DNA of 64,000 nt from Gemmatimonadota bacterium (lineage in GTDB: Bacteria > Gemmatimonadota > Gemmatimonadetes > Palauibacterales > Palauibacteraceae), in NCBI GenBank assembly GCA_039584255.1, contig JBDGYE010000005.1, positions 1,869-65,868 on the forward strand. Reading direction: 5' to 3'. A program made the translations under genes and the position numbers. Shown one piece after another: positions 5,744 through 64,000 of the stretch. Positions within the stretch are counted from its first letter, which is position 1, and every line of letters starts with the position of its first letter. Below the pieces are notes generated by a model. The model worked only from the letters and a program-made list of their open reading frames with translations, was not told where the DNA came from and ran no database searches.

Positions 5744-5747
5744 GCCC

Positions 5748-43833: not shown

Positions 43834-43836
43834 CGG

Positions 43837-45371: not shown

Positions 45372-45680
45372 GGCTTGGAGTCGGCTCGGAAGCCCTTTTC
45401 CCTTTCGGTGCCGGATCCGTTTCCGCTTCCGCCGCTCTTCGCAGCGCCGGCTCCTGGGGGGCAAGTTCGGTGCCGCATAGCCTGAGCTCGCCCATCAGTT
45501 CGCCCGATGACTCAAATCGCGACCCGACCGCCAGCTCGTAACGGCCACGCGGGGATCAGTTTGGGACACTGCGTCACGGGACGTGGCAGAATGACCGCTC
45601 GCGGGAGGGCTCGAAACGCGCGTGAGCGCCCGCACGGCAACTAGCTGTCGCACTGCGACGGAGCCGAGGTGGATCGCGCC

Positions 45681-48270: not shown

Positions 48271-48271
48271 C

Positions 48272-48955: not shown

Positions 48956-48968
48956 CGTCGCCAGCCTC

Positions 48969-51332
48969 TCACACCCGTTGGAGGCGCACGAAGGTCGTCG
49001 ACCAGGACTGAACACCCGTCAGGGGGTCGATCGAGCCATCGAGCACGCTGAGCGGGTTTGCGATTTCGCCGTCGGGGTGGCGGAGCCCGTAGGGTGCGCA
49101 AACGTGATCCGGGGGCGCACCCAAGAACAGCTTCAGCCGAGCGCGGTATCTGCCGCGTGACGACTCGACCCAGACCTGGGTGTCGTCCTCCAGACCTAGC
49201 GAGCGGGCCGTAGCCGGGTTCACCTCCACCCACGGATCCCAGTGAACTTCGGGGAACAGGCCGGGCTTTTCGGCGAGCCAACGCTCGAGGGCGAGGCTTC
49301 CGGATGCGAGCGTCGACACGCGGTACGGGACAAGACGCAGCGGGAAGCCATCGGTCGGGGCCACACCCCTGCTTCCCACATCGATGTAGGGCCGCCGCGG
49401 TCTGCCTTGGGCGTCCAGTACGACCGGCAGCCCCGGCGGCATCAGCTGGACGCGGCCATCAGACGTTCGGGCCAGGCGGCCGGGATCTGTGTGATCGTAG
49501 AACAGGTCCGTCCAGCCGCCTCTCTCCGTGAGCGCATCCCAGAACTCATCGAACTCCGTGTGCTGCGGCAGCCACCAGCCGCGCGACTCCATCTGCTCGT
49601 AATGCCTGCTCTCGAAGTCGCTTCTGAATGTCATGCCACGGCGTGCCGCGAACAGCCCTCGGGCGCGCTCTCTGAGCAGCGTTTCCACGCCGTCGTACGG
49701 AAGCGCCTCACGAACACCTCCGCCGAGCGCCCGCGCGATCTCGAGGACGGCATCGATCGTGTGCGTTCCACCCTCGTGCGGCGCAACGAGCGGCTGCGCG
49801 AGACCCCACACGGGATACGGGTAGGACTGTGGTGTGGGGGCGTCCTGCCAGCGCTCGTACGGAAGCAGGTCCGGCAACACGAGGTCTGCGTGCCGCGTGG
49901 TCTCGTCGAGGAAAGGCGAGAAGCTCACCACGTAGTCGATCATCTCCAATGCCTCACGCCAGACGTCAGGCGCGACCGACGAGGCGATCGGATTCGAATA
50001 GTAGAGGAAGAGGACTTCGACCTGTGCCGCGGCGCTTCCGACGATGGCCTCGGCGAATCGGTCGCGCTGGCCACCCGCCCCGAAGGCCGGAAGCGGGCCG
50101 GCCACACGCTCCCGGTCCAATCCGCGGCGCGCGGTATCGTCCAGAACCAGCGGCGCCAGCGGAGCGAGCGGCAGATCGTCCCCGAGCAGCACCCCGCCCG
50201 GCCGGTTGAGGTTGGCCGTGATCACGTTGACGCTGTGCACGGCCATGCCGGCGAGAAGTCCGTTCGGCGCAGCTGTGACGTCGCTCCCACAAATCGCAAC
50301 CGCTGCCGGGCTCTCGGCGTACGTCCTCGCCAGGGAGGTGATTCTCTCCACCGGCACACCGGTGATCGCCGATACCTCTTCTGTGCGGAAATTCCGGCTC
50401 ACGATAGACCGGTAGCCCTCTTGCAGCTGGCCTTCCACGTCCGTGAAGTCCTCGAAGCCGGACACTCGCTCGGCTATGAAGTCGAGTTCGAGCAGCTCGT
50501 CTCGGATCAGCACGTACGCGATCCCGAGTGCTAGGACCGCGTGGGTCCCCGGCCGGACACCCACCCACTCATGTGCTCGCGCCGCCGTCCTTGAGAAGCG
50601 CGTGTCCACCTGAATGAAACGGGAGCGCCGCGTTTCGTCGGATTCCGGATGGGCAAAACCCACGAAGGCCTGAAGGGGCGACCACCACGCCTCGAAGAGG
50701 GGGGCACCGAAGGAGAGCACCAGCTCTGAGTGGCCGAGATCGTAGCTCGGCCGCCGCTCGACCCCGTGCATCAGGGCCATCACCCCGTCGGTTCCGTCGC
50801 GGTAGTCATCGGCTATGTAATTCGGAGAGCCGAAAGCGGTGAGGAATTGGCGCCAGACATCCTCAACGGAGCCAGCACAGTATCCGGCGAGCAGGGCCAG
50901 CGCCTCGGGCCGGTCGGCCGCCCGCAGGCCCTTCAGGCGCTCAGCGATCAGAGCGAGAGCTTCATCGCGAGTCACCTGCCGCCACTGTCCTGAGCCCCGC
51001 GGGCCGTCTCTCACGATGGGTCCCGTGAGCCGCTGCGGATGGTAGAGTACCTGTACTCCCGCGATGCCACGCGGGCAGATACCCCCACGGCTCATCGGGT
51101 GAAGCGGGTTTCCGGCGATGCCTACGAGACGGCCGTCGACCAATCTGCCCCGAATGCCGCAACGCGCCGGGCAGAGCAAGCACGTCGACGCGCGAGCCTC
51201 CTCGAGCCCGGGCTCCCAGCCCTCGTATCCGTCCTGGTCCTGCGGCCACAAGACCTCCGGGACCCCCTGGAACGCCACGGCAGCCGCGGCCGCGCTGGCC
51301 GTCCAGAAGAACTCGCGACGAGTAGGGCTCAT
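48969..51332 (-). CDS. Tat-exported molybdopterin-oxidoreductase-family catalytic/large subunit (PsrA/PhsA/TtrA-like or cofactor-less ActB1-like)
   Basis: GGAGG RBS. The Tat signal is MSPTRREFFWTASAAAAAVAF. N-terminal Cys cluster C-x2-C-x3-C-x27-C (CLLCPARCGIRG...GGICPRG). Total ~787 aa. Confidence 0.8.
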   Translation of the reverse strand: MSPTRREFFWTASAAAAAVAFQGVPEVLWPQDQDGYEGWEPGLEEARASTCLLCPARCGIRGRLVDGRLVGIAGNPLHPMSRGGICPRGIAGVQVLYHPQRLTGPIVRDGPRGSGQWRQVTRDEALALIAERLKGLRAADRPEALALLAGYCAGSVEDVWRQFLTAFGSPNYIADDYRDGTDGVMALMHGVERRPSYDLGHSELVLSFGAPLFEAWWSPLQAFVGFAHPESDETRRSRFIQVDTRFSRTAARAHEWVGVRPGTHAVLALGIAYVLIRDELLELDFIAERVSGFEDFTDVEGQLQEGYRSIVSRNFRTEEVSAITGVPVERITSLARTYAESPAAVAICGSDVTAAPNGLLAGMAVHSVNVITANLNRPGGVLLGDDLPLAPLAPLVLDDTARRGLDRERVAGPLPAFGAGGQRDRFAEAIVGSAAAQVEVLFLYYSNPIASSVAPDVWREALEMIDYVVSFSPFLDETTRHADLVLPDLLPYERWQDAPTPQSYPYPVWGLAQPLVAPHEGGTHTIDAVLEIARALGGGVREALPYDGVETLLRERARGLFAARRGMTFRSDFESRHYEQMESRGWWLPQHTEFDEFWDALTERGGWTDLFYDHTDPGRLARTSDGRVQLMPPGLPVVLDAQGRPRRPYIDVGSRGVAPTDGFPLRLVPYRVSTLASGSLALERWLAEKPGLFPEVHWDPWVEVNPATARSLGLEDDTQVWVESSRGRYRARLKLFLGAPPDHVCAPYGLRHPDGEIANPLSVLDGSIDPLTGVQSWSTTFVRLQRV

Positions 51333-51355
51333 CCGTAACCTCCAGCCTCTATTCT

Positions 51356-51874
51356 CTATCGATGGCAGGCGTTGCAGTCGAGCGTAGCCCCCCGCTCGAG
51401 ATGGCAATCCATGCAGAAATCCATCGTCATCTCCACCAGCGGCCGGTTTGGTGGCCTAGTGGTCTCTGCTATCCTGCCGTGACATTCCTCGCACGGGAGC
51501 TCGGCGATTCCGACGTGCCGGCGGTGCGTGTAGAAGACGTGAGGTTCGAGCCGGAAAAGCTTGTTGAATCTCAGCGGGTCACCCTGGGCGATCAGTTCCG
51601 TGACCCGGGCGGCCTCTGGCGATGTCCCCTGCACGGTCTCGTGGCAGGCCGAACACGTTTCGGCGTCCGGAAGCCCGGCGTGGGCACCGGTGCCCACGTA
51701 AGGGTGGCAGAAGTCGCAGGCCATCTGGAACTCCCCGGCGTGTTTCAAATGGTTGAATTGAACGGGCTGGGGCACACGCGGACCGGGCGCAGCGACCAGG
51801 GATACTACCGACGCGATGACGACAATCGTCACGAAGACCACGACTCTTCGGCGCGAGATGCTGCGTCGCTTCAC
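51356..51874 (-). CDS. pentahaem c-type cytochrome with N-terminal TM anchor (ActA-like)
   Basis: N-terminal TM RRVVVFVTIVVIASVVSLVAA. Five CXXCH motifs (CDFCH, CSACH, CEECH, CMDCH, CNACH) in 172 aa. It is the first gene of the operon. Confidence 0.75.
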   Translation of the reverse strand: MKRRSISRRRVVVFVTIVVIASVVSLVAAPGPRVPQPVQFNHLKHAGEFQMACDFCHPYVGTGAHAGLPDAETCSACHETVQGTSPEAARVTELIAQGDPLRFNKLFRLEPHVFYTHRRHVGIAELPCEECHGRIAETTRPPNRPLVEMTMDFCMDCHLERGATLDCNACHR

Positions 51875-53286: not shown

Positions 53287-53288
53287 GC

Positions 53289-53744
53289 TCACGCCCCCCG
53301 GCTCACAACTATCTGATCGCCTCGCACGTTGACTTCGAAGGCATCGAGCGGTCGGGGTGGCGGGCCGGCGACGTTTCGACCGCTGAGGTCGAAGTGGCCG
53401 TTGTGGCAGGCACACCAGATGCGGCTGATGTCGTCGCGGTACTGCACGGTGCACTCGAGGTGAGAGCACACGGCCGAGAAGGCGCGGAGCTCTCCGTCTG
53501 GCGTGCGGACCAAGATTCCGGCCCGGTTGCCGAATCTGAACAGCCGGCCGTTGTTCGGAGCGATTTCCTCCGGCGCGAACGGCAACACGACCGAGCTCGC
53601 CGCCGATTCGGCGCTCGCGGGTGGAATGAGGTACCTGGTCACCGGGTAAAAGATCGCCAGCAGAATCCCCCCCACACCGGTCCCGAGGATCCAGTTGACG
53701 AACCTCCGTCGGGAAGCTCCGCCGGACTGTGAGGCTCCGCTCAT
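53289..53744 (-). CDS. Rieske [2Fe-2S] iron-sulfur subunit
   Basis: Tat-like [11 protein letters not shown] plus a TM. Box I CSHLEC and box [10 protein letters not shown] are present. Confidence 0.85.
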
Positions 53745-53782
53745 CAGTGCTCTCTCCTCCGCGAATCCAGAGGTTCGGGTGC

Positions 53783-55069
53783 TCAGGTCGTGCGACCTGC
53801 GGTGTGCCTTCCCTCGATCTGATGGATCTTCATCACAAGCCCGACTATCAGCACGATGATGACGATCACCGATGCGGCGAGGCCCATCCGACGGACCTGC
53901 AGATCGCGCAGCGCCCGAACGCCGCGCTCGACGCCCTCGGCGGCGATCTCCAGTCCTCCCTCGACTTCCGCACCGACAACGTCGGGGTTGAAGGCGTGAA
54001 CGGCCGCTCTGGCCTTTACGAGACCATCGTGGGCCCCCGTCATCTCGAATTGAGCCTGGCCGACCTCCATGCCGGCGTTCTCCGCTCGCGACAGGACCCA
54101 TTCCGCCGAATCCACAACGGTGCGCAACGAGTCGATCATGGCACGCATTGCCGCGGCGGCCTGACCGCCGGGATCATCCGCGGAATGGCATTGACTGCAT
54201 ACCGCATCGTCGGCCAGGCCGAGCATCGCGTCGCCGGCTTCGCCGATGTCGTGATTCCGGTGGCAGGTGGCGCACCCGGGAGTGCCGAGCAGGGTGAAGA
54301 CTTCTGCGTGGCGGGACTCTACGAAGTGGCCTGCCATCACGGCGTGACACTGCCCGCAGACATTGCCCACCCAAGAGATCCCGGGTGGGGCCGCGCCGTG
54401 ATTGCCGTGACAGTCGTTACAGGTAGGGGCCGAGAGGTCGCCCTCCTCGGACAGCATCCGCCAGTGCAGGCTGCGGTCGTACTTGTCCACCTGGTCCGAA
54501 GGCAGGCCGTACGGCTCCATGCGTTCCGGGTCTGCGTGACACTTCCCGCAAGTCTCCGTAACCCGTAGGGGGTGGACGCTCGAATTCGGGTCCGTCGGCC
54601 GCAGAATCTCGTGAGCGGGGTGACAGCTGATACATGTCGCAACGTTCGGGTCTCCGAGCTCCGTCAATCGGCGACCATGGGTGGAGGTCGCGTATTCCGC
54701 CAACTGGTCCACGCGGAGAGAGGGATTGTACCGCCTCATGAACTCAGCGTCCGCGTGGCACCGACCGCAAACCTCGAGGACCTGCCTGTGATCCGGAACG
54801 CCGATGTACCCCTTCATCGGGTCCATGGCCTCCAGTCCAGCCAACGTGGCGTCTCCCCCGTGGCACGCGATACAGCCGAATCCCTTGGCGGCGTGCACGT
54901 CCCGGGGGTAGCTCTCGGCCGGAGCGGCGAGACGCCCGCCGAGGGCTGCATGGCAGGTCAGGCACGTGCCGGTGGGCGGCTGGGCTTCCTGGCCCGGCGA
55001 TGCCGTTGGCCAGCCGGCAGCCGCGACGGCGATGGTCAGCAGACCGGCCCCTCTGTTGAGCCTCCTCAT
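53783..55069 (-). CDS. nonahaem c-type cytochrome with C-terminal membrane anchor
   Basis: Signal peptide. Nine CXXCH motifs (CLTCH, CIACH, CGRCH, CISCH, CGKCH, CNDCH, CGQCH, CATCH, CSQCH). C-terminal [23 protein letters not shown] overlap with the upstream cytochrome gene. Confidence 0.8.
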
Positions 55070-56280
55070 CGCGGCACCGCCAGAGATTCCAGAAACGCCC
55101 CTAGATCTGCCATCTCGCTTGGCGTAAAAGTAGGCCAGACTTCCCCGATGCCCGACTCGTACATAGCCGGGGCATGGTTCCAGAGCGAGGCAGCCATTCC
55201 GCCCGGAGAGTCGACGCCTCTCACCGCGGCCAGGTCCGGAGCGTTCGTCCCCCCGCGGCCGTTCAACGAATGACAGGCGAGGCAGCCCTTATCCCTCAAC
55301 AGGAGTCGTCCGCGGTCCGGATCGCCGGAATCCGCGAAGTACTGGACAGAGTGGAGGTATGCCACGAGATCCGCCATCTGTACGGCCGACAGCTTGGGGA
55401 CCGACAGCCCTCTGGCCCTCAACGCGCGGCGCATCGCCGGAGCTTTGTTAAGCATAGCCGCAGCGAACTCGGTCATGCTCCGCCTGCCCCGGCCCCCTGC
55501 CAGATCGGGACCGAGCCGTCCTCCTCGGCCCAGGATGCTGTGGCAATCGATGCAACCCTTCTCCACGACCAGCCGCCTTCCCTCGTCCGCCCGCCCGGGC
55601 AATACGTGCAGAGGGCCTTGTGGCCAATCCCCCGCGGCGGATTCCAGGTAAGAGATCAGGTCGATGAGCTCGCTGCCCGAGACAGACGACCGCTCGATGC
55701 CGAGAGCGTTCATCGCTTCGTCCATGGCCGGCCCGTGGTTCCACATCGCCGCCGCGACCTGGATCGGCGATCCGAAGTAGCTCACGAACTCGAGGTTCGG
55801 ACCGATTACGCCGCCCACGCCGCCGACCTGATGGCACATCACGCAGCGCTTTTCCGTGAACAGCTCCCGGCCGTGCGCGGCATCGCCGGGAGGATCGAAG
55901 TAGTCGAGCGTGAACAGGAAGGCGATGAGATCGCTCGTCTCCTGCGCCGTCATCTGTGGCCGGTCGATGCCGAGGCTCCCCATGCGTTCGACCATCCGTG
56001 GAACGTGGTTCCACATGTGCGCGGCCAGCTCATAGAACGTCTTCCTCTCGGAAGAGGCTCCCAGATCCGGGCCCTCGTCTCCGCCGAGCCCGCGGACGGC
56101 GTGGCACTTCACGCAACCCTTTTCCCCGAAGACCTGCGCTCCGGCGAAGGCGTTCTGAGCCGGTCCCGCCGGCGTCTGCGCAAGGCTCGCCGTAGTGGCT
56201 CCGAACAGCGCAAGTACGGCAGCCAGGGGGACGATGATGGACCGGTGCGGATGCCCCATGCGGATACTCTCGTCAGTCAT
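55066..56280 (-). CDS. c-type cytochrome with four class-I monohaem domains (paralog of 45681..46901)
   Basis: CVKCH, CVMCH, CIDCH, CLACH, each followed by the G.GG..GP(D/N)L and MWNH/LWNH motifs. Signal peptide present. Confidence 0.75.
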   Translation of the reverse strand: MTDESIRMGHPHRSIIVPLAAVLALFGATTASLAQTPAGPAQNAFAGAQVFGEKGCVKCHAVRGLGGDEGPDLGASSERKTFYELAAHMWNHVPRMVERMGSLGIDRPQMTAQETSDLIAFLFTLDYFDPPGDAAHGRELFTEKRCVMCHQVGGVGGVIGPNLEFVSYFGSPIQVAAAMWNHGPAMDEAMNALGIERSSVSGSELIDLISYLESAAGDWPQGPLHVLPGRADEGRRLVVEKGCIDCHSILGRGGRLGPDLAGGRGRRSMTEFAAAMLNKAPAMRRALRARGLSVPKLSAVQMADLVAYLHSVQYFADSGDPDRGRLLLRDKGCLACHSLNGRGGTNAPDLAAVRGVDSPGGMAASLWNHAPAMYESGIGEVWPTFTPSEMADLGAFLESLAVPR

Positions 56281-56528
56281 GGTGTACCAACCTGCATATC
56301 GACCGCGGACAGCTTAAGGGCAAGAATGGCAGATGCTGCGAAGGCTTATAATGAGCGGCTGTCGCCCCCATACGCCAGACCCGTGAGGCCGCGGTCCGGA
56401 CAGCGGTCGAGCTTTCGTCCATCGGGGCCCGTTGGTATCGTAATTGCGAGGGCACACGGTGACACACGGCCGCCAGGGCCGAACGGTCTGTAGACCAGGC
56501 CGGGAGCTCGACAACAAGGAGAGCGAGC

Positions 56529-56924
56529 ATGAGGAGAGCGCTGAGTTTGATGCTGGGCCTGACCCTTGTCTTCGGTTTCGGCTTGCAGGCCGCGGCCGCA
56601 CAGGAGTCTGGCAAGCCGGCTGCCGTGACCCACGATCTCGAGGGCAAGGACAACTGCCTGATGTGCCACAAGACCGGGGTCATGGAAGCTCCGGTCGCGC
56701 CCGAGAGCCATGCCGACCGCACGAGCGACGTGTGCCTGCTATGCCACGGCGAGGGCTCGCCGATGCAGACAGCGGATGCGGGAGCGATCCCCCACGATCT
56801 CGAGGGCAAGGACAACTGCCTGATGTGCCACAAGACCGGGGTCATGGAGGCGACGAAGATTTCGGAGAATCACGGCGAGGTGGCGAACGAGCAGTGTCAG
56901 CTCTGCCATACGCCGGCCGGCTGA
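56529..56924 (+). CDS. small periplasmic tetrahaem c-type cytochrome (tandem dihaem modules)
   Basis: The signal peptide is MRRALSLMLGLTLVFGFGLQAAAAQE. Four CXXCH motifs (CLMCH, CLLCH, CLMCH, CQLCH) occur in a ~105-aa mature protein. Confidence 0.75.
   Translation: MRRALSLMLGLTLVFGFGLQAAAAQESGKPAAVTHDLEGKDNCLMCHKTGVMEAPVAPESHADRTSDVCLLCHGEGSPMQTADAGAIPHDLEGKDNCLMCHKTGVMEATKISENHGEVANEQCQLCHTPAG
56631..56849 (+). repeat. 162-bp-period tandem duplication inside the tetrahaem gene; first ~57 bp of each unit identical except 1 nt
   Basis: cacgatctcgagggcaaggacaactgcctgatgtgccacaagaccggggtcatgga(a/g)g occurs at 56631-56687 and 56793-56849 (HDLEGKDNCLMCHKTGVMEA twice). The rest of each unit has diverged (ESHADRTSDVCLLCHGEG vs ENHGEVANEQCQLCHTPAG). 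Confidence 0.85.
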
Positions 56925-57075
56925 GCCGGACCCTCCGACTCCTGGAGGCAAGCGCTTCCGGAGTCGCAAGTAGGGAGTAGATAGACTCATAAACTCAGAT
57001 CGCCGCGGCGCCTGACCGACGCCGCGGCGATCTTCTTTGTTGTCCGCAGGGCTTTGAGCCCCCTGCCCGATACCT

Positions 57076-58470
57076 CTACGGCGAGTCCAGCTGGAATCCG
57101 AAGTGGCAGATGCCGCAGGACATCTCGCTCTTCTCCCGGACGTGCTCGGGGTCGAAGTCGGGCCCGTGTGGGTTGATCCGGAAGCCTTCCTTCGCCGAGT
57201 GGCAGCGTAGACACGAATCCTGCTGGTGGCAGGAGACGCAGGTCTCCAGGTTCTGTCGGGCCGCCTGCCCGTGGCTCTGAAACCAGTTCGGATCCGCGTC
57301 GTGGTAGCCGCCGGCGGTCCTTTCGTCCTGGCCGGCACCCTGGCTCTCATGGCAGTTCCGGCAGAAGACCTCGCGCGAGTGGCACTCGGCGCATTCCATC
57401 GGCGCGGCCCAGGCCTCCGCGGGGTGACGCTGGACGAAGTTCACCGGATGAAAGACGGGCCGCCCCGCTCCGTCGTGACAGTCGATGCAGAACGTCTCGG
57501 CATGGCAGGCGGAGCACTTTGGAGTCGCCGCCACGGCCGCCTCGCCGTGCGCCACCGCGAAGGTCGGTCCGTGACCGGGAACTTCCCCGCTGGCCGGCAC
57601 GGCTCTGGCAGAAGCTCCGTGGGCCTCCGGGAAGCCGTCGGTCACGCGGTCACCCGTGTCGAGGTGACAGGCAGAGCACGTCTCCGCCGCGTGGCAGGTG
57701 GAGCAGCTCTGAGGCGAGGTCTCCGCAAGCGCGGAGTGCGTCATCTGCCAGTCGGACGCCTGGTGGCTCGGCGGAATCGGCCAGCTTCCCTCGCGGCCGG
57801 TAACCATCTCGGCCACGCGCCCGTCCGCGGCGAGAGCCATGATTGGCGCCACCGCCGCGGCGTTGGCGTGGCAGCGGGTGCAGCTCTCCCGGGCGTGGCA
57901 GACTGAGCACCGGGCCACGTCGTCAAGGGCCGCTGCGCCGTGCTGGAAGGCGAAGTCGGCCGACCCGTGATCCGGTGGCGCGGAAAACGCCGCGATCGTG
58001 GCCGCCGTCATCGCCGGCGCCTCGGAGAGTGTCATGTGGCACTGTGCACACGGCACGCCCGCGGCCTGGTGATCCTCCGTGCCGGGCGCGTGGCAGGCCA
58101 TGCAGGCCTCGGCGGCGGCGGCCTGAACCTCCATCTCGCCGCCGGTGCCGGGAGTCTGGTGGCAGGCGCCGCAGGGGAGCTCCGGGTGGCCCGGGTGGAC
58201 CGTCTTAAGGTTCCCCGCCGGTTGCTCGGCCCGGCCCTCCCACGCAACCGCCGGGAGGTTGGTGCCATCGTGGCATCCGCCGCACAGCGTCGGCTCGACG
58301 GATACCGACTGCTCCGGCTCTCCCGCCTCGATGCCTTCGTGACACGCGGTGCAGGTGGGGAAGATCCCCTGATGCCGCGCGTGCGGGAACGGCGTCTCCT
58401 GTGGGCGCGAGAGCATGACCCCCACACCGAACAGCAGCCCGACGGAAGCTAGCAACGCCGCTCGTTTCAT
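57076..58470 (-). CDS. 16-haem c-type cytochrome (secreted; very high haem density)
   Basis: The start MKRAALLASVGLLFGVGVML (58470) overlaps the stop of the upstream beta-barrel gene (ATGA). Sixteen CXXCH motifs occur in ~464 aa, about 1 per 29 aa. Confidence 0.8.
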   Translation of the reverse strand: MKRAALLASVGLLFGVGVMLSRPQETPFPHARHQGIFPTCTACHEGIEAGEPEQSVSVEPTLCGGCHDGTNLPAVAWEGRAEQPAGNLKTVHPGHPELPCGACHQTPGTGGEMEVQAAAAEACMACHAPGTEDHQAAGVPCAQCHMTLSEAPAMTAATIAAFSAPPDHGSADFAFQHGAAALDDVARCSVCHARESCTRCHANAAAVAPIMALAADGRVAEMVTGREGSWPIPPSHQASDWQMTHSALAETSPQSCSTCHAAETCSACHLDTGDRVTDGFPEAHGASARAVPASGEVPGHGPTFAVAHGEAAVAATPKCSACHAETFCIDCHDGAGRPVFHPVNFVQRHPAEAWAAPMECAECHSREVFCRNCHESQGAGQDERTAGGYHDADPNWFQSHGQAARQNLETCVSCHQQDSCLRCHSAKEGFRINPHGPDFDPEHVREKSEMSCGICHFGFQLDSP

Positions 58471-59942
58471 CAGTAGCCTCCGATTCCCCGCAGCGAGGTG
58501 CGCGGCTGGGCCGCCATGGTGCCGAAGCGGTAACCGAGCGACAGGTGGGCCCGCGCCTGAGTCCAATCCGGGCTGTCCGGTCGCTTGTCGTACGTCATTC
58601 GGTAAAGGCCACCGCTTCCCGACACGGAAAACGTCCCGACATTCCAGGAGAAGTCGAGCCCGCCGCCGGAGGCGACCTGCTCACCGACGCGAAACTCGCC
58701 GAACGTCTGGGTGACGGTACCGTGCAGTGCCAGCCTGATATCGGGTCCGAAGGTTCGGCCCACGGTGAGATCACCTCCGTAGCGCGCGGCGCCGAAGCCG
58801 GTCTCCGACCGGTAGCCCCCGTCGACGAACCAGTCGCGTCCCCGCCACCGCCCACCGGCCAGAAGGCGCCAGCCGTCGGTCTTCATGGGTGCTAATTCTG
58901 CGCCCGCGTTGGCCTTCTCGTAGTCGCGGTATCCGCCTCCCACCTCCAGCGTCAGGGTCGAGCCGGGGAGGGTCCAGCTCAGCAGTCCACGGCCCTCCTT
59001 GAATCCGACCGGAGTAAAGGCGCCCCAGATCGTCCACAGCTCGAAGAAAGGAGTGTAGTGCCTTCCCTCCAGCGTCAGGTGGAAGCCTTTCGGAAGCGGG
59101 GCGGCGGCGGCCAGCCGGGCCGAGTTGACCTCCTTGTAGGCCAGGTCATAAGCCAGTGAGCCGTCGATCACGACCTGCGGCAGCATCAGCCGCGCATCTG
59201 CAGCGATCCGCTCGGAGTAGAGGGCCAGGCGATCGGTGCGGATCTCGCGCTGGTACAGGCCGCTGAGGAAGAATTTCCTCTGGACGTCGACTCCGGCCTC
59301 GAAGCCGTAGATCAGGGCCCGCTTGTCCGGCGCGAAGACGTCGTTCTCGCTGAGCAACTTCCCGCTTCGCGGAGCGTTCGTGCCCGGGTAGAGGCTCCAA
59401 CCTCCCCAGGCCTCCAGCCGGAGCACGTCGAGTCCCTTCCAGAGAACCGACCCTCCATCGAAGTTGCGGTAGCCCAGGCTGCTCGCTCGCAGCAGCCGGC
59501 CCGCCGTGGCGCGCCACCCGGCCCGCTCGTACCGCGCGTAGCCCGTGATCAGGTCGAACTCCTGGCTCGACTTCGGCCACACCTCGTCGCTCAGAAAGCG
59601 GGTCCGCATCTGGCTGTGCACGGAGAGTCCTTCCACCCCGAGCCAGGCCGCGAACCGGATGTCGCCGTAGGTCGGAGTGACCGTCTGCACATCGCCAGCA
59701 CGGTACCAGCGGCAGAAGTCGTCGGTGAGGCAGGTAACGATGGTGCCGTTCGCGAGCCGTCTCTGAAGCCCGTCGCCAGGAACGCTGCTCTCCGGGACGC
59801 TGTCTCGCACCAGGCCGCGCAGCTCGAGCACGTCTCCCCGTACCCTTACCTCGGCCTGGTATCCCTGAGCGGCGAGTGAAAGTGGACTCAGCGGGGCTGC
59901 CAGGAGGAGGAGAGCGAGCGCCCGTCGATGGACGGTCATCAT
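58470..59942 (-). CDS. outer-membrane beta-barrel protein (candidate cytochrome-associated porin, MtrB/OmbB-like role)
   Basis: Signal peptide MMTVHRRALALLLLAAPLSPLSLAAQG. About 490 aa with abundant alternating hydrophobic/polar β-strand segments (…GLDFSWNVGTFSVSGSGGLYRMTY…, …HLSLGYRFG…). The C-terminal residue is Tyr. An N-terminal C-x5-C (CLTDDFC) is present. Confidence 0.55.
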   Translation of the reverse strand: MMTVHRRALALLLLAAPLSPLSLAAQGYQAEVRVRGDVLELRGLVRDSVPESSVPGDGLQRRLANGTIVTCLTDDFCRWYRAGDVQTVTPTYGDIRFAAWLGVEGLSVHSQMRTRFLSDEVWPKSSQEFDLITGYARYERAGWRATAGRLLRASSLGYRNFDGGSVLWKGLDVLRLEAWGGWSLYPGTNAPRSGKLLSENDVFAPDKRALIYGFEAGVDVQRKFFLSGLYQREIRTDRLALYSERIAADARLMLPQVVIDGSLAYDLAYKEVNSARLAAAAPLPKGFHLTLEGRHYTPFFELWTIWGAFTPVGFKEGRGLLSWTLPGSTLTLEVGGGYRDYEKANAGAELAPMKTDGWRLLAGGRWRGRDWFVDGGYRSETGFGAARYGGDLTVGRTFGPDIRLALHGTVTQTFGEFRVGEQVASGGGLDFSWNVGTFSVSGSGGLYRMTYDKRPDSPDWTQARAHLSLGYRFGTMAAQPRTSLRGIGGY

Positions 59943-60087
59943 GCATGCTCCGGGGAGTGTGGGTTCAACCACCGTCGAGTCCCGCTATTCGGCTGCCTCA
60001 ACTTGATGTACGCTTCCCAATGCATCAACCCCGCCGGGGGACGGCTCAGTGACCGGTCCCCGGGGAGCCACCTGATATGGCCGCGGC

Positions 60088-62922
60088 TCACCGATAGCCG
60101 AACAGCGCCGAGTACACGATGAGGAGGATCAGAAAGGTCCCAACGCCCAGCATCGTGAATCCGAAGATCCGGAACGCCAGCTCCACTCTTTGCGGGTAAG
60201 GCACCACGAGTCGCTGTTCGAACTCACCCTGCGCGACCATCCGCTCGTACTCGCGTGGCTTGTCGCGTCTGAGCTCCTCCACCGAGACCCGGCCCGTGAA
60301 GATCACCGGATCCATGGGAAACTTGTCGAGTCGGAAGTGCGTGTTGAAGAAGTGGATGGTGAAGATAAACGCCACCGCAAGTAGCGCTTCGTCGCTGTGG
60401 ATGATCGTCGCCACGTTCACCAGCTTCCCCGGAAGGAGGATCGTGAAGAACTCGGGAAACCAGAGCAGAAGCCCCGTCGAGCCGATCACGAACATCCCCC
60501 AGAACACGGCGAAGTAGTCGAACTTCTCCCAGTATGTGTAGCGCCCGTACTTCGGTCGTGGCCCCCGCCCGAGGAACCACTTGACCGAGGCCATGAACTC
60601 CCGGACGTCGTCCATGTTGAACACCAGGGAGTCGCGGGACTTGATCAACTCCAACCAGGTCTGGCCGGCGCGCTTCTTCTGCTTACGTACATCGATGAGG
60701 TGAATAATGAACACCGCGATCAGCGCCACGGCTCCGAGCCGGTGCCATACTCCCAGGGCCCCGAAGCCGCCCAAGAGCCACGCGAAACTCTGGGCCCAGC
60801 CCATGTGCGAGAACTTGAGTGCCATCCCGGTCGCCGCGAGCGTCATGAAGCTGAGCATCATGACTATGTGGAGCGAGCGCTGGAACGTCGTGAACCGGCG
60901 GTACTCCTTCCGGGACCTAGCCGCGGCGTCCACCGTCTCAGGTGCCTTCCACTCGTCCGGTGAGCGCCACAACCGCCACAGCCAGGCGGCCGTATGGGTC
61001 GTAGCGACGGTCAACGTGCCGATCAGCAGGCTCGCCATGAACCAGAAGGTCCAGAACAGGAAGGGGTACCGATCCGGATCGTGGTGCGTGGCGTGCGTCA
61101 GGTAGCCCGTGAACCTTCTGTTGGCTCCTCGGTGACATTGCCCGCACGTGTCGACGATGTGACGGCGGCTCAGGGTGGAAGCCGGCTCGCTGGGCGGGAG
61201 GATGGAGTGCGTTCCGTGGCAGTCGTAGCACTTCGCGGCCCGCTCTTCCCCGAGGCGCGAGACCTTGCCATGGTACGTGTCGAAGAAGGTCTCGGCCTCA
61301 CTCTCATGGCAGCGGCCGCACTGGTCCATCATCAGCAGCCTGAAGTCGGCCCTGTCCGTGCGGCTGATGGTGTGCGATGTGTGACAGTCCTCGCAGGTCG
61401 GCAGCTCGTGCTCCCCGGTGGGCTCGCCCACTCCCGGCCAGTGGATGCTCCCCCGGAACTGCTCTTCGATCCCGTGGTGACACTCGCCGCATGTGATGGC
61501 GACGTTCGCGGGGTGCACCTTCGAGCCCTCGTCCTCGGCCGGGAGCTCACTGTGCGCGCCGTGGCAGCTCGTGCAAGTGGCCGTGACCACGAGGCCGCTC
61601 TCGATGAGCCCCTTCCCGTGGATGCTCATCTCGTAGGAGCCGACGATGTCGCCGAAGCGACTCGGGATTCGGGTCGCAGCCGCCTCGCCGGGCCGATGAC
61701 AGCGTGCGCACAGGTCCGGTACGTTCCTCGGGTAGGTGGGCGAGGTCGGCACCCGCTTGTCCATCTCGGCGTGCTTGTCGTGGCAGTCGTAGCACGTAGG
61801 GGCATCCGCGTCGCCCTGCGCCGCCAGGGTGCCGTGTGCGCTCCTCTCGTACTCCGCCATCACGTCGGCGTGGCAGATTCCGCAATCGACGGGCGACTCT
61901 ATCGTCTCACAGGGTCGCTCGTCGTAGAGCGCCGTCACCTCGACGTGACACTGCGCACACGAGGTGCCCGAATGATCCGACTCGTTGAAGGCCTCCTCGT
62001 CCACGTGCATGGACACATGCTGGACGCCTCTCCGGTCGACCACGAGGTTCGGGTCGGCGTGGCAGCGCATGCAGTCCTGGTTGGAGACCCCCGCGTCGTA
62101 GAACACCTGCCGGATCCTGTGCGGCGAGTGACAGTCCACGCAGGCCGGGATGACCTCGGGCTCCTCCTCCCACAGGTGCCCCTCGATGACCTGGACATGC
62201 ACCTCCTCGATCCGCCCGTGGCACCGCGTGCAGGTGGCGGCGACGTTGTCGAGGTGGATGCTGGAGCGCGGATCGGTATGCGGCAGAATCCGGTGCGACG
62301 TATGGCATGACGTGCAAACCGCCGTGACCGTGAGTCCCTGCCGGAACAGCCCGGTTCCGTGAATCGAGAGTGAGTAGTTCTCGAGGATCCTGTCCTCCGG
62401 GATGTCCCTCGTGCGCGAGACCTCCGTTCCTTCGTGGTGGCATTCCCCGCACAGCAAGGGGATGTTCATCACCGCGGTCGGAGACTCCGGGTCCGAGCTC
62501 CGGAGGACATCGTGCCTGCCGTGGCAGTCGGAGCAGCTCGGAGCGAGGGGGTCTCCCCTGGCCGCCGCCCGCCCGTGTAGCGACTCGCTGTGCTCTCGGT
62601 CCTGGATCGAGTGACAGCGCCCGCAGTCGGCCGGCGCGCGGTCCTCAGGATGGGGGAAGGAGAGTCCTGCGTGGCAGTCGGTGCACCCGAGGCGGGCGTG
62701 AACCGATCCGTCGAGCTGGTCCTGGGTGATCACGAAGCGCTGCCCGTCGGCCCGGGTCTGCCAGAACTCGGGGTTCTGGTGGCACATCAGACAGGCCGCG
62801 TTGTCCTGCGCGCGCGCCGGGGTCACGGCCGTCAGTAGAACCGCGAGCGTCAGGCACAGCGGCAGGATGCCTGAGGACAGGCGGATCCACCTGTTCCATC
62901 TATGCCCGAATCGAGACGTCAT
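60088..62922 (-). CDS. 19-haem c-type cytochrome fused to a C-terminal HydC/FdnI-like dihaem b-type cytochrome membrane domain (CbcL-like)
   Basis: The start is at MTSRFG (or MRNGPRDR, 62946), followed by a signal/anchor. There are 19 CXXCH motifs in the first ~640 aa. The last ~330 aa are 4-5 TM and clearly paralogous to ORF 63273..63983 (e.g. RFTTFQRSLHIVMMLSFMTLAATGMALKFSH vs VFFQRSELIQHMLLAVSFIVLVITGFALRYPD; ...YWEKFDYFAVFWGMFVIGSTGLLLWFP... vs ...YWALIWGTLLMVFTGLVLWFP...). Confidence 0.8.
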   Translation of the reverse strand: MTSRFGHRWNRWIRLSSGILPLCLTLAVLLTAVTPARAQDNAACLMCHQNPEFWQTRADGQRFVITQDQLDGSVHARLGCTDCHAGLSFPHPEDRAPADCGRCHSIQDREHSESLHGRAAARGDPLAPSCSDCHGRHDVLRSSDPESPTAVMNIPLLCGECHHEGTEVSRTRDIPEDRILENYSLSIHGTGLFRQGLTVTAVCTSCHTSHRILPHTDPRSSIHLDNVAATCTRCHGRIEEVHVQVIEGHLWEEEPEVIPACVDCHSPHRIRQVFYDAGVSNQDCMRCHADPNLVVDRRGVQHVSMHVDEEAFNESDHSGTSCAQCHVEVTALYDERPCETIESPVDCGICHADVMAEYERSAHGTLAAQGDADAPTCYDCHDKHAEMDKRVPTSPTYPRNVPDLCARCHRPGEAAATRIPSRFGDIVGSYEMSIHGKGLIESGLVVTATCTSCHGAHSELPAEDEGSKVHPANVAITCGECHHGIEEQFRGSIHWPGVGEPTGEHELPTCEDCHTSHTISRTDRADFRLLMMDQCGRCHESEAETFFDTYHGKVSRLGEERAAKCYDCHGTHSILPPSEPASTLSRRHIVDTCGQCHRGANRRFTGYLTHATHHDPDRYPFLFWTFWFMASLLIGTLTVATTHTAAWLWRLWRSPDEWKAPETVDAAARSRKEYRRFTTFQRSLHIVMMLSFMTLAATGMALKFSHMGWAQSFAWLLGGFGALGVWHRLGAVALIAVFIIHLIDVRKQKKRAGQTWLELIKSRDSLVFNMDDVREFMASVKWFLGRGPRPKYGRYTYWEKFDYFAVFWGMFVIGSTGLLLWFPEFFTILLPGKLVNVATIIHSDEALLAVAFIFTIHFFNTHFRLDKFPMDPVIFTGRVSVEELRRDKPREYERMVAQGEFEQRLVVPYPQRVELAFRIFGFTMLGVGTFLILLIVYSALFGYR

Positions 62923-63272
62923 TCGATCTCTCGGTCCGTTTCTCATCCGCACGACCGGTTGGCAGGGCAGGTCGTGCCTAATCCATGTAGCTGCAAGAAG
63001 CGGACTCGGTCGAGCGGAGGTGGCCGCTGGGCATTGTGCCGCTTCGGGACGGGGAATCTGCTGGTTGGCCGATCGGGTCGCGCGCCCTTTCCGCACAACG
63101 GCGCGCGGGTCGCGGGGTCAATGTGTCACATCATGTTCGTGAAAGACCGCGCAGGAGTGTAGTGAGAACAGCCGCAAGGCTGTAACGCCATGCTGCAGAT
63201 CCGGTTGTGGCCCTCAGAATGGGCCCGGGGCCCAACCGGGCGCCCGGCGGCCCCCCGTCCATCGAATGATCC

Positions 63273-63983
63273 TCAGCTTCCGCTCATCTGCGAGGGCTTG
63301 ACTTCCTCCTCGTACCACTCGCTGTGGTGCTCCTTTACCTCTTCCTCCGGCATCCGACCCGTCAGCCAGGTCCAGCTCATCGGATATACGTCGGGATGGA
63401 AAATCACGAAGAAGAAGTGCCACACGACGATGGCCAGGGTCGCCAGCCAGGCCTCATAGAAGTGCACCGTCTGAGAAGCCGAGACGATCCAGTACGGAAA
63501 AATCCGCACCGAGGCCTGCGGAAACCACAGCACCAGCCCGGTAAACACCATGAGCAGCGTTCCCCAGATGAGGGCCCAGTACTCCGCCTTCGCTGGATAC
63601 CCAAAGCGACCGAAGCGAGCCTTGTCACGGCTCCGCCAGGTGTGGAAGCGGATGTTGTCGGCCAGATCCCGGAAGTCCTTCATCGCCGGCAGCATATCAC
63701 TTAGAACCCGGCGGCCTCGCCGTATGCTGAGCAGGTACGTGCCATGCCAGACGGACACCACCATCAGAGCGACACCGGCGACGCGATGGACGGTGGAGCG
63801 CACGGTCTCGCCCAGCCCGAGCTCGCCCGCCGCTTGGACCCAGAACGCGTCCGGGTACCGCAGAGCGAATCCCGTAATCACCAGCACGATGAAGGAAACG
63901 GCGAGGAGCATGTGCTGGATGAGCTCGCTCCGCTGGAAGAAGACAATCCCTCCCTCGCGCCGCTCCGCCCGCCGCTTCTCCAC
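63273..63983 (-). CDS. dihaem b-type cytochrome, HydC/FdnI/PhsC-like (Ni/Fe-hydrogenase / formate dehydrogenase gamma-subunit family)
   Basis: Four TM helices with conserved His positions (…HMLLAVSF…H.VAGVALMVVSVWHG… …HFYEAWLATLAIVVWHFFF). A GTG start at 63981-63983 is possible. The ORF is open to the window edge, so the true start may be outside. Confidence 0.65.
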   Translation of the reverse strand: MEKRRAERREGGIVFFQRSELIQHMLLAVSFIVLVITGFALRYPDAFWVQAAGELGLGETVRSTVHRVAGVALMVVSVWHGTYLLSIRRGRRVLSDMLPAMKDFRDLADNIRFHTWRSRDKARFGRFGYPAKAEYWALIWGTLLMVFTGLVLWFPQASVRIFPYWIVSASQTVHFYEAWLATLAIVVWHFFFVIFHPDVYPMSWTWLTGRMPEEEVKEHHSEWYEEEVKPSQMSGS

Positions 63984-64000
63984 CAGGTAGTAGTTGATGA

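Follow-up and report, generated by a model that had tools for sequence, protein, structure and literature searches.

Probable tandem, anciently diverged c-b fusion cytochromes of the CbcL/MtrH/MtoC family in a Gemmatimonadota genome

The locus described here lies near one end of the window, the 64,000-nucleotide stretch of Gemmatimonadota DNA that was analysed. We consider it probable that it pairs two paralogues of the CbcL/MtrH/MtoC family that stand in tandem and diverged long ago, and that these 11- and 19-haem bc cytochromes would serve, by analogy, as electron conduits between the membrane quinone pool and the periplasm or outer membrane. We document the architecture, paralogy, ligand conservation, topology and taxonomic distribution of the pair and weigh its possible functions.

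Results

The features of the locus, all on the reverse strand, are the following.

57076..58470 (-): 464-aa secreted cytochrome with 16 CxxCH (motif count, N-terminus)
58470..59942 (-): 490-aa secreted protein, predicted large outer-membrane beta-barrel of ~22-24 strands (AF2)
60088..62922 (-): 19-haem c / dihaem b fusion cytochrome gene, 944 aa from Met59 (19 CxxCH, homologue lengths)
60091..61065 (-): membrane domain, six TM helices (AF2 helices, Foldseek, family profile, His conservation, loop charges)
61066..62808 (-): periplasmic multihaem c domain, 19 CxxCH (motif positions and spacings; Pfam Cytochrome_C7, Cytochrom_c3_2, Paired_CXXCH_1)
62809..62922 (-): Sec-type signal peptide, MTSRFGHRWNRWIRLSSGILPLCLTLAVLLTAVTPARA followed by QD (hydrophobic segment at residues 15-33, then an AxA motif)
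63273..64000 (-): 3′ portion of another c-b fusion gene, of the 11-haem class and cut off at the window edge (open frame, PF01292, orthologues)

The mechanical ORF at 60088..63096 (-) encodes 1002 aa from a GTG at 63096. It holds exactly 19 CxxCH motifs, at residues 102-655, and towards the C-terminus it scores 40.2 bits with PF01292 (Ni_hydr_CYTB; cutoff 30.1), which bears out the preliminary description of 19 motifs joined to a cytochrome b domain in one ORF. The true start is likely Met59, at 62922; homologues are about 920-960 aa long and can be aligned from the signal peptide onward. The signal peptide ends in TPARA before QD, a layout repeated in the consensus of 61 homologues.

In the membrane domain, a core of four FdnI-like helices (TM2-5) is flanked by one additional helix before it (TM1) and one after it (TM6, at the C-terminus), with AF2 helices at 620-653, 679-703, 720-752, 797-821, 832-862 and 911-942 (pLDDT about 80-90). 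The best structural match of the AF2 model in Foldseek was E. coli FdnI (1kqf_C; target-normalised TM-score 0.77, rmsd 4.0 Å), and a family profile run against the PDB matched FdnI alone (E=1.4e-11, FdnI residues 3-211). FdnI H18, H57, H155 and H169, the haem ligands of the 1kqf structure, fall at positions where His is invariant in 125-126 family sequences once these are aligned with E. coli FdnI (127 sequences in all). Together with the PF01292 scores, these matches uphold the assignment of the b domains to the HydC/FdnI type. In all, six membrane His are invariant (1002-aa numbering): H701 in TM1, H743 in TM2, H785 and H799 in TM3, and H900 and H915 in TM5. Judged from the alignment, H701 and H799 are not accounted for by a simple FdnI-like dihaem model. 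Successive membrane-domain loops carry 6/0/8/0/9 K+R residues which, taken with the signal peptide, fit the positive-inside rule and the periplasmic placement of the c domain that had been proposed.

In the c domain, the homologue consensus contains 21 further invariant His outside the motifs for 19 haems. These could serve as distal ligands, and the c haems are apparently bis-His electron-transfer haems throughout. The AF2 model of this domain is of moderate confidence (mean pLDDT 70.7). The c domain of an 11-haem paralogue (L002) aligns with it in two registers, at residues 20-361 (E=2e-57) and 281-604 (E=2e-44), revealing an internal duplication of about eight haems; the 19-haem domain probably arose from an 11-haem-like ancestor through duplication of a block of roughly eight haems.

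The upstream neighbour had been described as a standalone 236-aa protein, encoded by 63273..63983 (-). Its frame and its relatives indicate that it is instead the final part of another c-b fusion gene, whose 5′ part lies beyond the window edge. Upstream of the GTG at 63983 the frame has no stop codon up to the window end; it reads INYYLVEKRRAERREG and is open through 63998. The sequence from 63273 to 64000 encodes the last residues of TM1, the four core FdnI-like cytochrome b helices and a cytoplasmic tail, without a sixth TM helix. The ORF matches PF01292 at 55.9 bits, and its His24, His66, His174 and His189 (236-aa numbering) align with FdnI H18, H57, H155 and H169. Its closest orthologue, L054, matches it with 78% identity along 240 aa (residues 454-693 of the L054 protein), and the alignment passes uninterrupted across the supposed GTG start; the L054 stop-to-stop ORF has 699 codons, a signal peptide and 11 CxxCH. 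All orthologues with an intact reading frame and 54-78% identity (13 of 13) are 11-haem fusions; those at 54-61% identity are L002-L006, L008, L012-14, L016, L020, L021 and L027. The fragment corresponds to the C-terminal domain of these ~650-700-aa proteins, each with 11 CxxCH, and every database relative of it that was examined extends N-terminally into TM1 and CxxCH motifs. From the open frame and the 11-haem orthologues it follows that the locus is a tandem of c-b fusions with 11 and 19 haems, rather than one standalone and one fused b domain. A stop and a start site just past base 64000 are unlikely, because the 78% identity to L054 spans the junction.

Over a 228-residue alignment the b domains of the two ORFs share 29% identity (compositionally adjusted E=7e-28), confirming that they are paralogous. 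Since the His ligand positions coincide and are invariant in the 127-sequence alignment, the similarity is not merely one of hydrophobic composition. The b domains of the 19-haem clade are on average 64% identical to one another and those of the second clade 43%, but identity between the clades is only 29%. Since each clade has members in several phyla, the duplication is an old one, contrary to the suggestion of a recent innovation. For a heterodimeric b module, also raised at the outset, we found nothing in support, and 35 of 81 loci hold the 19-haem gene without a second module nearby.

The barrel gene follows the 19-haem gene at a distance of 145 bases (60088 to 59942) and keeps this place directly after it in 19 Gemmatimonadota loci. 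Its product has no Pfam or NCBIfam match. The AF2 model is all-beta (pLDDT 87.4, pTM 0.80), and Foldseek returned only generic outer-membrane barrels (MOMP, the FimD usher pore, AlgE; TM 0.3-0.46); MtrB was absent from the top 50 matches, and no likeness to a known EET porin was seen. The ATG of the 16-haem cytochrome gene shares one base with the barrel stop codon, and the 464-aa gene call is repeated on contig L083. The two genes co-occur in 20 loci and as a pair are confined to Gemmatimonadota; many genomes carry the 19-haem gene without an obvious conduit nearby. At 25 loci of other phyla, a 3-TM cytochrome adjoins the 19-, 21- or 23-haem gene. Its haem-motif spacing (25, 49, 108, 117, 21) resembles that of Geobacter ImcH (24, 49, 106, 117, 20), and both types of Geobacter EET quinol oxidase therefore appear to be co-located there. 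Elsewhere in the window, a molybdopterin oxidoreductase gene (48969..51407) stands next to FeS and NrfD anchor genes of its own. In a complete genome (L001) the 19-haem gene adjoins the hydrogenase-maturation genes hypCDE and hypFBA, and at three loci (L007, L009, L011) a split c and b gene pair sits just upstream of the 19-haem gene.

Uninterrupted full-length relatives of the 19-haem type occur in at least 598 species-level genomes, and the form is found across Gemmatimonadota, Acidobacteriota, Woeseiaceae and Ignavibacteria. Among 75 complete ORFs, drawn from 80 fetched loci plus L001, the number of CxxCH motifs is 19 in 55, 20 in one, 21 in nine and 23 in ten. The idea that 19 haems would place this protein among the largest of its kind gives way to these 21- and 23-haem relatives, and in PMC6295460 (Zhong & Shi 2018) the CbcL/MtrH/MtoC homologues range from 3 to 23 haem motifs and reach 1034 aa.

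Discussion

By analogy, the most likely role of these proteins is that of an inner-membrane quinol:multihaem-cytochrome oxidoreductase, a function carried over to the 11- and 19-haem classes from nine-haem Geobacter CbcL. Each polypeptide would be exported by its Sec signal peptide, the c haems of the N-terminal domain being attached covalently in the periplasm. A TM helix leads into the FdnI-like four-helix core, where two b haems would be stacked across the membrane, and the 19-haem form adds a sixth helix. A site in the b domain would oxidise (mena)quinol or reduce quinone, haems bC and bP would carry electrons across the membrane, and the 11- or 19-haem chain would hand them on to multihaem partners in the periplasm or outer membrane. 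In the Gemmatimonadota genome the partner is probably the beta-barrel and 16-haem cytochrome encoded downstream, which would form a porin-cytochrome-like conduit. We infer quinone reactivity, the direction in which electrons flow and the role of the barrel and 16-haem proteins as partners.

Electrons may also flow in reverse, although we regard this as rather unlikely. The fusions would then be quinone reductases, as proposed for MtoC: donors outside the cell or in the periplasm (Fe(II), reduced minerals or a partner cell, for example) would supply electrons, which the barrel/16-haem conduit and then the haem chain would bring inward to the quinone pool. The last motif spacings of the c domain (32, 25, 30, 28) do resemble those of Dechloromonas MtoC (31, 25, 30, 28), MtoC homologues are present in Fe(II) oxidisers according to PMC6295460, and a Rieske/cytochrome b complex and a four-domain monohaem cytochrome c, typical of higher-potential chains, are encoded on the same strand. 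Against this, ImcH-like genes are co-located with the 19-haem gene in other phyla, ImcH homologues are reported solely from Fe(III) reducers in that same source, and no Cyc2 or MtoA/MtoB homologue was recognised within the window.

It is improbable that the fusions anchor soluble dehydrogenases of the periplasm (a hydrogenase, formate dehydrogenase or molybdoenzyme, for instance) to the membrane and collect their electrons, forming FdnI/HydC-like redox loops with a haem chain in place of the Fe-S subunit. FdnI is the closest relative of the b domain, and both the hyp genes of L001 and the molybdopterin oxidoreductase of the window could be read this way. However, the hyp adjacency is limited to that one locus, the Mo enzyme already has its neighbouring anchor genes, and no adjacent FdnG/H or hydrogenase structural gene is found in the window or at most loci. 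The NCBIfam equivalogs for FDH-gamma and hydrogenase cytochrome b also fall well short of their cutoffs (47.5 and 70.2 bits against 115.85; 27.6 against 121.5).

A standalone dihaem b subunit beside a c-b fusion, whether as a heterodimeric b module or through very recent duplication and fusion, is very unlikely. The paralogy of the b domains is genuine, and L007, L009 and L011 do carry split versions, in which one gene covers the c domain and TM1 and the next, a gene of its own for 294 aa, the b domain. The supposed standalone ORF, however, runs to the window edge without an upstream stop, its orthologues are 11-haem fusions, the relatives examined reach into TM1 and CxxCH, and the paralogue clades diverge far more from each other (29%) than within themselves across phyla (43-64%). 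In a metagenome-derived contig, an assembly error or frameshift could a priori have united a multihaem c gene with a separate b gene to give the 1002-aa ORF. This can be dismissed, as a continuous ~920-960-aa ORF is kept in more than 120 protein clusters, the full-length relatives include those on closed chromosomes CP070815 and CP070716, and the identical sequence occurs on the independent 18.8-kb contig L083. The 19-haem form is a genuine one and did not arise recently.

Comparison with known systems

The closest counterparts of the tandem fusions are CbcL of Geobacter sulfurreducens (GSU0274) and its homologues MtrH of Rhodoferax and MtoC of Dechloromonas and Gallionella, bc-type proteins of the inner membrane that act in extracellular electron transfer as quinol oxidases or quinone reductases. 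The likeness to CbcL drawn in the preliminary description is apt: Geobacter CbcL combines nine c haems with a dihaem b domain of six helices (PMC9129911; PMC6295460), the same layout as here. Shared by architecture are a signal peptide, a multihaem c domain, a TM helix, an FdnI/HydC-like dihaem b core and, in the 19-haem protein, a helix after that core that brings the total to six TMs. The last CxxCH lies 28 residues from TM1 in both, TM spacing is similar, invariant distal His suffice for all-bis-His ligation, and other multihaem cytochrome genes adjoin. Unlike CbcL, the window proteins have 19 and 11 c haems, the larger with its internal eight-haem duplication and the smaller without a sixth helix; they form two tandem paralogues in a Gemmatimonadota host and are known from sequence alone.

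In PMC6295460, identity across the family falls to 28.6%, and Table S2 lists as a homologue the Gemmatimonadetes protein MAF27600.1 (951 aa, 19 haems, six TMs; CxxCH at 53, 90, 113, 143, 171, 216 ... 603), together with 19-haem Ignavibacteria proteins such as OGU58019.1 (952 aa) and 11-haem proteins of about 700 aa. The CxxCH pattern of our protein matches that of MAF27600.1 at an offset of 45-49 residues, and length, motif number, six TMs and phylum agree, placing it by sequence in a subclass already catalogued there. That source gives the 19-haem homologues as list entries, without functional or evolutionary analysis; neither the tandem pairing with an 11-haem paralogue and the eight-haem duplication, nor the six invariant membrane His and the barrel/16-haem neighbours, were found in its available part.

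E. coli FdnI (1kqf chain C), the only solved structure detectable by sequence, has the four-helix core and all four haem-ligand His positions in common with the window proteins. Identity is only about 19%, however, and the window proteins fall below the NCBIfam FDH-gamma cutoff, have no FdnG/H partner, add TM helices on both sides of the core and carry a fused periplasmic c domain. The family also has two extra invariant His, one of them where FdnI has Met71. Geobacter CbcBA, by description, likewise combines an FdnI-like b protein (CbcB) with a multihaem c protein (CbcA), but as separate subunits comparable to the split versions noted above; each c-b pair of the window is a single polypeptide. 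The window pair joins a catalogued, little-studied family thought to link the membrane quinone pool and the cell envelope.

Two fused cytochromes in tandem

The 19-haem gene encodes a multihaem cytochrome c fused to a membrane cytochrome b, and its upstream neighbour carries a paralogue of the same b domain.

60088-63096, minus strand: 19-haem c-b fusion ORF, 1002 aa from a GTG codon, with exactly 19 CxxCH motifs within residues 102-655

The motifs lie at residues 102, 138, 158, 188, 216, 261, 289, 319, 342, 380, 405, 435, 463, 508, 536, 568, 593, 623 and 651. Pfam places multihaem c families over the N-terminal 600 residues and, towards the C terminus, the FdnI/HydC family model PF01292 (Ni_hydr_CYTB), with a score of 40.2 bits; the small upstream ORF (63273-63983, minus strand) scores 55.9 bits with the same model, so that both are above the gathering threshold of 30.1 bits. 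In BLASTP, the last 350 residues of the 19-haem protein align with the small ORF over 228 residues, of which 29% are identical (E = 7e-28 with compositional adjustment). Taken together, the Pfam matches, this alignment and the motif count show that the paralogy of the b domains, the 19 haem motifs and the fusion, all proposed in a preliminary description of this DNA, are real. Because homologues of the 19-haem protein are about 920-960 aa long and align from the signal peptide onward, its true start is most likely Met59 (base 62922). Translation from Met59 gives a 944-aa precursor whose Sec-type signal peptide has the hydrophobic core LSSGILPLCLTLAVLLTAV and a cleavage motif of the AxA type, between ARA and QD. 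A promoter and terminator scan of 56000-64000 gave nothing above shuffled expectation, and an Rfam scan gave no match.

The small ORF had been described as a standalone 236-aa cytochrome b, and this description reflects the edge of the window. Its frame has no stop from the GTG at 63983 to the window end, reading INYYL-VEKRRAERREG... through base 63998. In L054, the contig with the closest relative, the orthologue is 78% identical over 240 residues with an alignment that is unbroken across the supposed start; the counterpart of the window fragment is residues 454-693 of an ORF that spans 699 codons from stop to stop and encodes a signal peptide and 11 CxxCH motifs. On contig L002, similarly, the orthologue forms the C-terminal end of a 668-aa, 11-CxxCH protein. 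A second b-domain gene lies near the 19-haem gene at 46 of 81 loci and is an 11-haem fusion at 32 of the 46; all 13 orthologues of the small ORF that have an intact frame (54-78% identity) are 11-haem fusions, and a fourteenth, on contig L028, appears frameshifted. On the basis of the open frame and these orthologues, the small ORF is best read as the 3′ end of a second c-b fusion gene, in a predicted tandem of an 11-haem followed by a 19-haem gene. The last 241 codons of the 11-haem-class gene fall within the window, and its haem count is read from the orthologues. An exact-sequence look-up of the 236-aa ORF found no match, as expected if it is a fragment, and a partial Gemmatimonadetes entry carries NYYLVEKRRADRRERG, in agreement with the window edge.

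Most database matches to the truncated ORF are entries of 200-410 aa, which might be taken for standalone b proteins. The ten short entries that we read all begin within TM1 (motif GGMxLHN) or within the c domain, and a signal peptide is missing from every one; we therefore rejected such entries as fragments or mis-started gene calls. On contig L007 (8311-10810), and likewise on L009 and L011, a split module is found immediately upstream of the 19-haem fusion gene, in which a gene for a multihaem c domain plus TM1 (with its conserved His) is followed by a gene for a 294-aa five-TM b protein. These split b proteins represent a separate paralogue: their identity is 43-45% with the 19-haem b domain and 29-32% with the window fragment.

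On L002, the 11-haem c-b gene is preceded by the gene for a 660-aa cytochrome (5580-7562, plus strand), which has about 19-20 haem motifs and is anchored in the membrane by an NrfH/NapC-like N-terminal part. Its family is present at 19 loci, just upstream of the 11-haem gene in Gemmatimonadota relatives, a position that in our contig falls past the window edge. As the 660-aa cytochrome gene precedes the 11-haem gene in these relatives, there may be three candidate quinone-linked multihaem proteins in a row.

The membrane domain and its histidines

An AF2 model of the 19-haem protein, built from 61 sequences, has a mean pLDDT of 70.7 and values of about 80-90 in the membrane part (60091-61065). 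It contains six TM helices, at 620-653, 679-703, 720-752, 797-821, 832-862 and 911-942 (numbered from Met59). Successive TM loops hold 6, 0, 8, 0 and 9 Lys and Arg residues, a pattern that makes the loops following TM1, TM3 and TM5 cytoplasmic and leaves the short loops, like the c domain, on the periplasmic side; with the signal peptide, this agrees with the periplasmic c domain first envisaged.

The assignment of the b domain to the HydC/FdnI type was borne out by sequence and by fold. In a Foldseek search of the PDB, E. coli FdnI (1kqf chain C) was the only significant match (E = 3.9e-4, target-normalised TM-score 0.77, rmsd 4.0 Å), and HyaC (4gd3_A) reached a TMt of 0.50 with E = 5. A single-sequence phmmer search of the PDB was weak (E = 0.006), so a family profile was needed; the profile of 29 family b domains matched FdnI only, over its residues 3-211 (E = 1.4e-11). 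When 126 family b domains were aligned with E. coli FdnI (sequence from NC_000913), FdnI His18, His57, His155 and His169 coincided with family-invariant histidines, equivalent to H743, H785, H900 and H915 in the 19-haem protein (numbering of the 1002-aa ORF) and to H24, H66, H174 and H189 in the fragment. We take the haem ligands in 1kqf to be H18/H169 for bC and H57/H155 for bP. A merely compositional resemblance between hydrophobic segments with unaligned His ligands can be dismissed, since all four FdnI positions align and are invariant across the family.

Two further membrane histidines are 100% conserved in 118-126 sequences from both paralogue clades, so that six membrane histidines are invariant across 9- to 23-haem members.

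60994-60996, minus strand: codon of H701, near the cytoplasmic end of the extra TM1
60700-60702, minus strand: codon of H799, in TM3, 14 residues past the bP ligand H785, where FdnI has Met71

A plain FdnI-like dihaem model leaves H701 and H799 unexplained. Both lie at the cytoplasmic end, beside the FdnI-type bC ligands, and judging from their conservation and placement they could ligate a third b haem, provide an alternative, bc1-like two-helix ligation of bC, or line a quinone site.

Origin of the c domain and distribution of the family

The c domain of the 11-haem protein aligns with that of the 19-haem protein in two registers, at residues 20-361 (E = 2e-57) and 281-604 (E = 2e-44), and the CxxCH spacing within the 19-haem domain repeats as 30, 28, 45, 28, 30-32, 23-25. 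These two observations show the 19-haem c domain to be an 11-haem-like domain in which a block of about eight haems has been duplicated. Apart from the histidines of its 19 motifs, the c domain has 21 that are invariant in 61 homologues, so that each haem could have two His ligands. For CbcL, spectroscopy has shown that all nine haems are bis-His-ligated (PMC9129911), and by analogy the supply of invariant histidines points to the 19-haem domain being an electron-transfer chain, as opposed to a catalytic haem site. The sole Foldseek match of the c part, to anammox hydroxylamine oxidoreductase, is weak (E = 0.014, TM 0.13-0.24) and is regarded as generic multihaem packing.

Full-length relatives of the 19-haem gene are present in at least 598 genomes in a scan of one genome per species. 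The best 80 of these are 50-79% identical, include closed chromosomes, and come from Gemmatimonadota, Acidobacteriota (Thermoanaerobaculia, Bryobacteraceae, Solibacteraceae), Woeseiaceae and other Gammaproteobacteria, Ignavibacteria/Chlorobi, Zixibacteria and Myxococcota; the best matches, at 72-79% identity, are in Gemmatimonadota MAGs, and the window, which itself comes from a Gemmatimonadota genome, has a GC content of about 65%. That the fusion is a frameshift or an assembly artefact is discounted by the uninterrupted relatives in at least 598 species genomes, closed chromosomes among them. The protein had also been thought exceptional in size. Of 75 complete ORFs, 55 have 19 CxxCH motifs and the others have 20 (one ORF), 21 (nine) or 23 (ten), and proteins with 3-23 motifs are already recorded in a published survey (PMC6295460), so that this distinction falls away.

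Two b domains of the 19-haem clade share 64% identity on average and two of the second-module clade 43%; across the clades the mean is 29% (maximum 37%), and each clade is spread over several phyla. These values indicate that the b-domain duplication long predates this genome, and they are at odds with the suggestion of a recent innovation.

Family assignment

The features that characterise the inner-membrane bc-type cytochromes CbcL (GSU0274, Geobacter), MtrH (Rfer_4073) and MtoC (Daro_1404) recur here. The 19-haem protein and the 11-CxxCH orthologues of the truncated ORF have a signal peptide and a multi-CxxCH periplasmic domain; both have a C-terminal TM domain with HydC/FdnI-like similarity, of six helices in the former and five in the 11-haem paralogue; and the TM histidines for b haems are conserved (H743, H785, H900 and H915, with two further). 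The family usually has six TM helices and rarely four or five (PMC6295460). We therefore place the window protein in the CbcL/MtrH/MtoC family as its probable home, a presumed sequence similarity to GSU0274 itself resting on the layouts in the published Table S2 (PMC6295460).

Among the other families weighed, the formate dehydrogenase (FDH) gamma subunit provides the best NCBIfam models for the window b domains. The scores are far under the equivalog cutoffs (47.5 and 70.2 bits against 115.85 for TIGR01583), and no FdnG or FdnH gene lies next to the window genes, whose neighbours are cytochromes and a barrel protein. On the family's protein database entries (P0001-P0120 and P0241-P0360), JGI widely uses the name 'cytochrome b subunit of formate dehydrogenase' or 'formate dehydrogenase gamma subunit'. 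Given the low FDH-gamma scores, and since no FdnG/H gene was seen next to family members at the loci examined, this naming looks like systematic over-annotation, which would reflect a family-level resemblance and not an identification. For the Ni/Fe-hydrogenase b-type subunit (TIGR02125) the truncated ORF scores 27.6 against a cutoff of 121.5 bits, the 19-haem ORF is not listed, and the fold match to HyaC stays at the TMt of 0.50. The cytochrome b of bc1/b6f complexes (PF00033) was considered for its 14/15 His spacing and rejected, as its profile matches neither ORF, the spacing of 14 and 15 on two helices being the only reminiscent trait.

Genomic context

Downstream of the 19-haem gene are two genes for secreted proteins.

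58470-59942, minus strand: 490-aa secreted protein, modelled by AF2 as a beta-barrel of about 22-24 strands (pLDDT 87.4, pTM 0.80)
57076-58470, minus strand: secreted 16-CxxCH cytochrome, whose start overlaps the barrel stop codon by one base (translationally coupled)

The barrel protein has no family match in Pfam or NCBIfam. Foldseek matches to its model are generic porin, usher and outer-membrane barrels, with MtrB outside the top 50, so no specific porin family can be assigned. It is 100% identical to database entry P0121, which is carried on the 18.8-kb contig L083, a contig that begins within a 19-haem gene. The barrel and 16-haem pair directly follows the 19-haem gene at 19-20 Gemmatimonadota loci and is absent in other phyla; judged from the model, it is a candidate porin-cytochrome conduit of unclassified type. 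On the opposite strand, a 131-aa tetrahaem cytochrome (56529-56924, plus strand) has an internal tandem duplication in which the segment HDLEGKDNCLMCHKTGVMEA occurs twice, and its homologues lie near the cluster at many Gemmatimonadota loci.

Neighbour clusters were drawn from an all-against-all comparison of six-frame ORFs at 81 loci, which antisense shadow ORFs contaminate, and only clearly featured clusters were used. In 25 loci from phyla other than Gemmatimonadota, a 19-, 21- or 23-haem gene adjoins a gene for a 3-TM cytochrome of about 490 aa, the N-terminal part of which resembles NrfH/NapC. The haem-motif spacing of this cytochrome (25, 49, 108, 117, 21) matches that of Geobacter ImcH (24, 49, 106, 117, 20).

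L021, L029-L033, L035, L036, L038, L041, L043, L048, L051, L052, L056, L058-L060, L062, L066-L068, L072, L075, L078, L080: loci with the 3-TM cytochrome
L052, 7681-9243, minus strand: example of the 3-TM cytochrome

The complete Gemmatimonadota chromosome CP070815 (L001, 10001-18972) has a 19-haem gene without an adjacent 11-haem paralogue; the hydrogenase maturation genes hypCDE and hypFBA follow it, and on the opposite strand, about 7-10 kb beyond, are genes for the barrel and for multihaem and monohaem cytochromes.

Other respiratory genes of the window lie further downstream on the minus strand. At 52189-56280 there is an unusual bc-type complex gene set: a 9-CxxCH cytochrome anchored by a C-terminal TM segment and a 404-aa cytochrome that consists of four monohaem class-I domains come before a Rieske protein and a cytochrome b in which b6 and a subunit IV-like part are fused. 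The true PF00033 cytochrome b of the window is at 52189-53469. Two modules occupy 42634-51874: the first comprises a small multihaem c, a molybdopterin oxidoreductase (48969-51407), a 4Fe-4S protein, an NrfD-type membrane protein and a cytochrome c, and the second a multihaem c (44643-45464), a 4Fe-4S protein and an NrfD protein in an arrangement similar to ACIII or Qrc.

Possible function

Only a few gateways are known to link the quinone pool with extracellular electron transfer, the CbcL-type bc cytochromes among them. By analogy, the family assignment and the association with barrel/16-haem and ImcH-like neighbours support a role for the 11- and 19-haem proteins as an electron gateway from the quinone pool to the periplasm, or in reverse, feeding multihaem partners; in Gemmatimonadota the partner would possibly be a porin-cytochrome-like conduit. 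For both proteins we infer which way electrons flow, where the quinone binds and which partners take part. A more ambitious proposal combines two ideas: that the membrane domain is not a plain dihaem b, having a third haem or a bc1-like re-ligation of bC with a His-lined quinone site, and that the duplicated 19-haem chain is long enough to act as an inner-membrane-anchored wire reaching a new type of outer-membrane conduit, the 490-aa barrel with the 16-haem cytochrome, operating without soluble periplasmic shuttles. We think it improbable that both hold together.

The Gemmatimonadota, Acidobacteriota, Woeseiaceae and Ignavibacteria are abundant in soil and sediment. That at least 598 species genomes from these groups have the 19-haem class, often beside the 11-haem paralogue or an ImcH-like gene, suggests that the capacity for redox exchange with minerals or particles is far more widespread than model organisms imply.

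Comparison with known CbcL-type cytochromes

CbcL serves as a quinol oxidase for low-potential extracellular acceptors. To our knowledge, the 9-haem Geobacter protein alone has been studied among CbcL-type bc cytochromes, and the 19-haem architecture has never been studied experimentally. Geobacter CbcL has a nine-haem periplasmic c domain and a six-helix dihaem HydC/FdnI-like b domain (PMC9129911; PMC6295460). In the literature consulted we found no mention of the 11-haem and 19-haem genes as a conserved tandem, of the internal duplication of eight haems, of the two invariant membrane histidines beyond the four ligands, of a barrel and a 16-haem cytochrome as neighbours specific to Gemmatimonadota, or of the ImcH-like neighbour in other phyla.

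The 19-haem fusion architecture is already catalogued. The survey of Zhong & Shi (2018) records CbcL/MtrH/MtoC homologues in 15 phyla, with 3-23 CxxCH motifs, 416-1034 residues and mostly six TMs, and its Table S2 contains 19-haem Ignavibacteria proteins, 11-haem proteins of about 700 aa, and the 951-aa, six-TM Gemmatimonadetes protein MAF27600.1 (PMC6295460). The CxxCH motifs of MAF27600.1, at 53, 90, 113, 143, 171, 216, 244, 274, 297, 333, 357, 387, 415, 460, 488, 520, 545, 575 and 603, follow the same pattern as those of the window protein, offset by 45-49 residues. Because the architecture is already catalogued, the locus adds no new principle; it offers a candidate Gemmatimonadota pathway of two quinone-linked cytochromes, a barrel and a 16-haem cytochrome, and it raises a structural question in the two extra invariant histidines, H701 and H799. 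In the same table, the rows for GSU0274 and MtoC (Daro_1404) show, as in the window protein, 28 residues separating the last haem motif from TM1, with a congruent TM layout (PMC6295460). The tandem 11- and 19-haem CbcL-type bc cytochromes are widely conserved proteins of a kind that the literature already lists.
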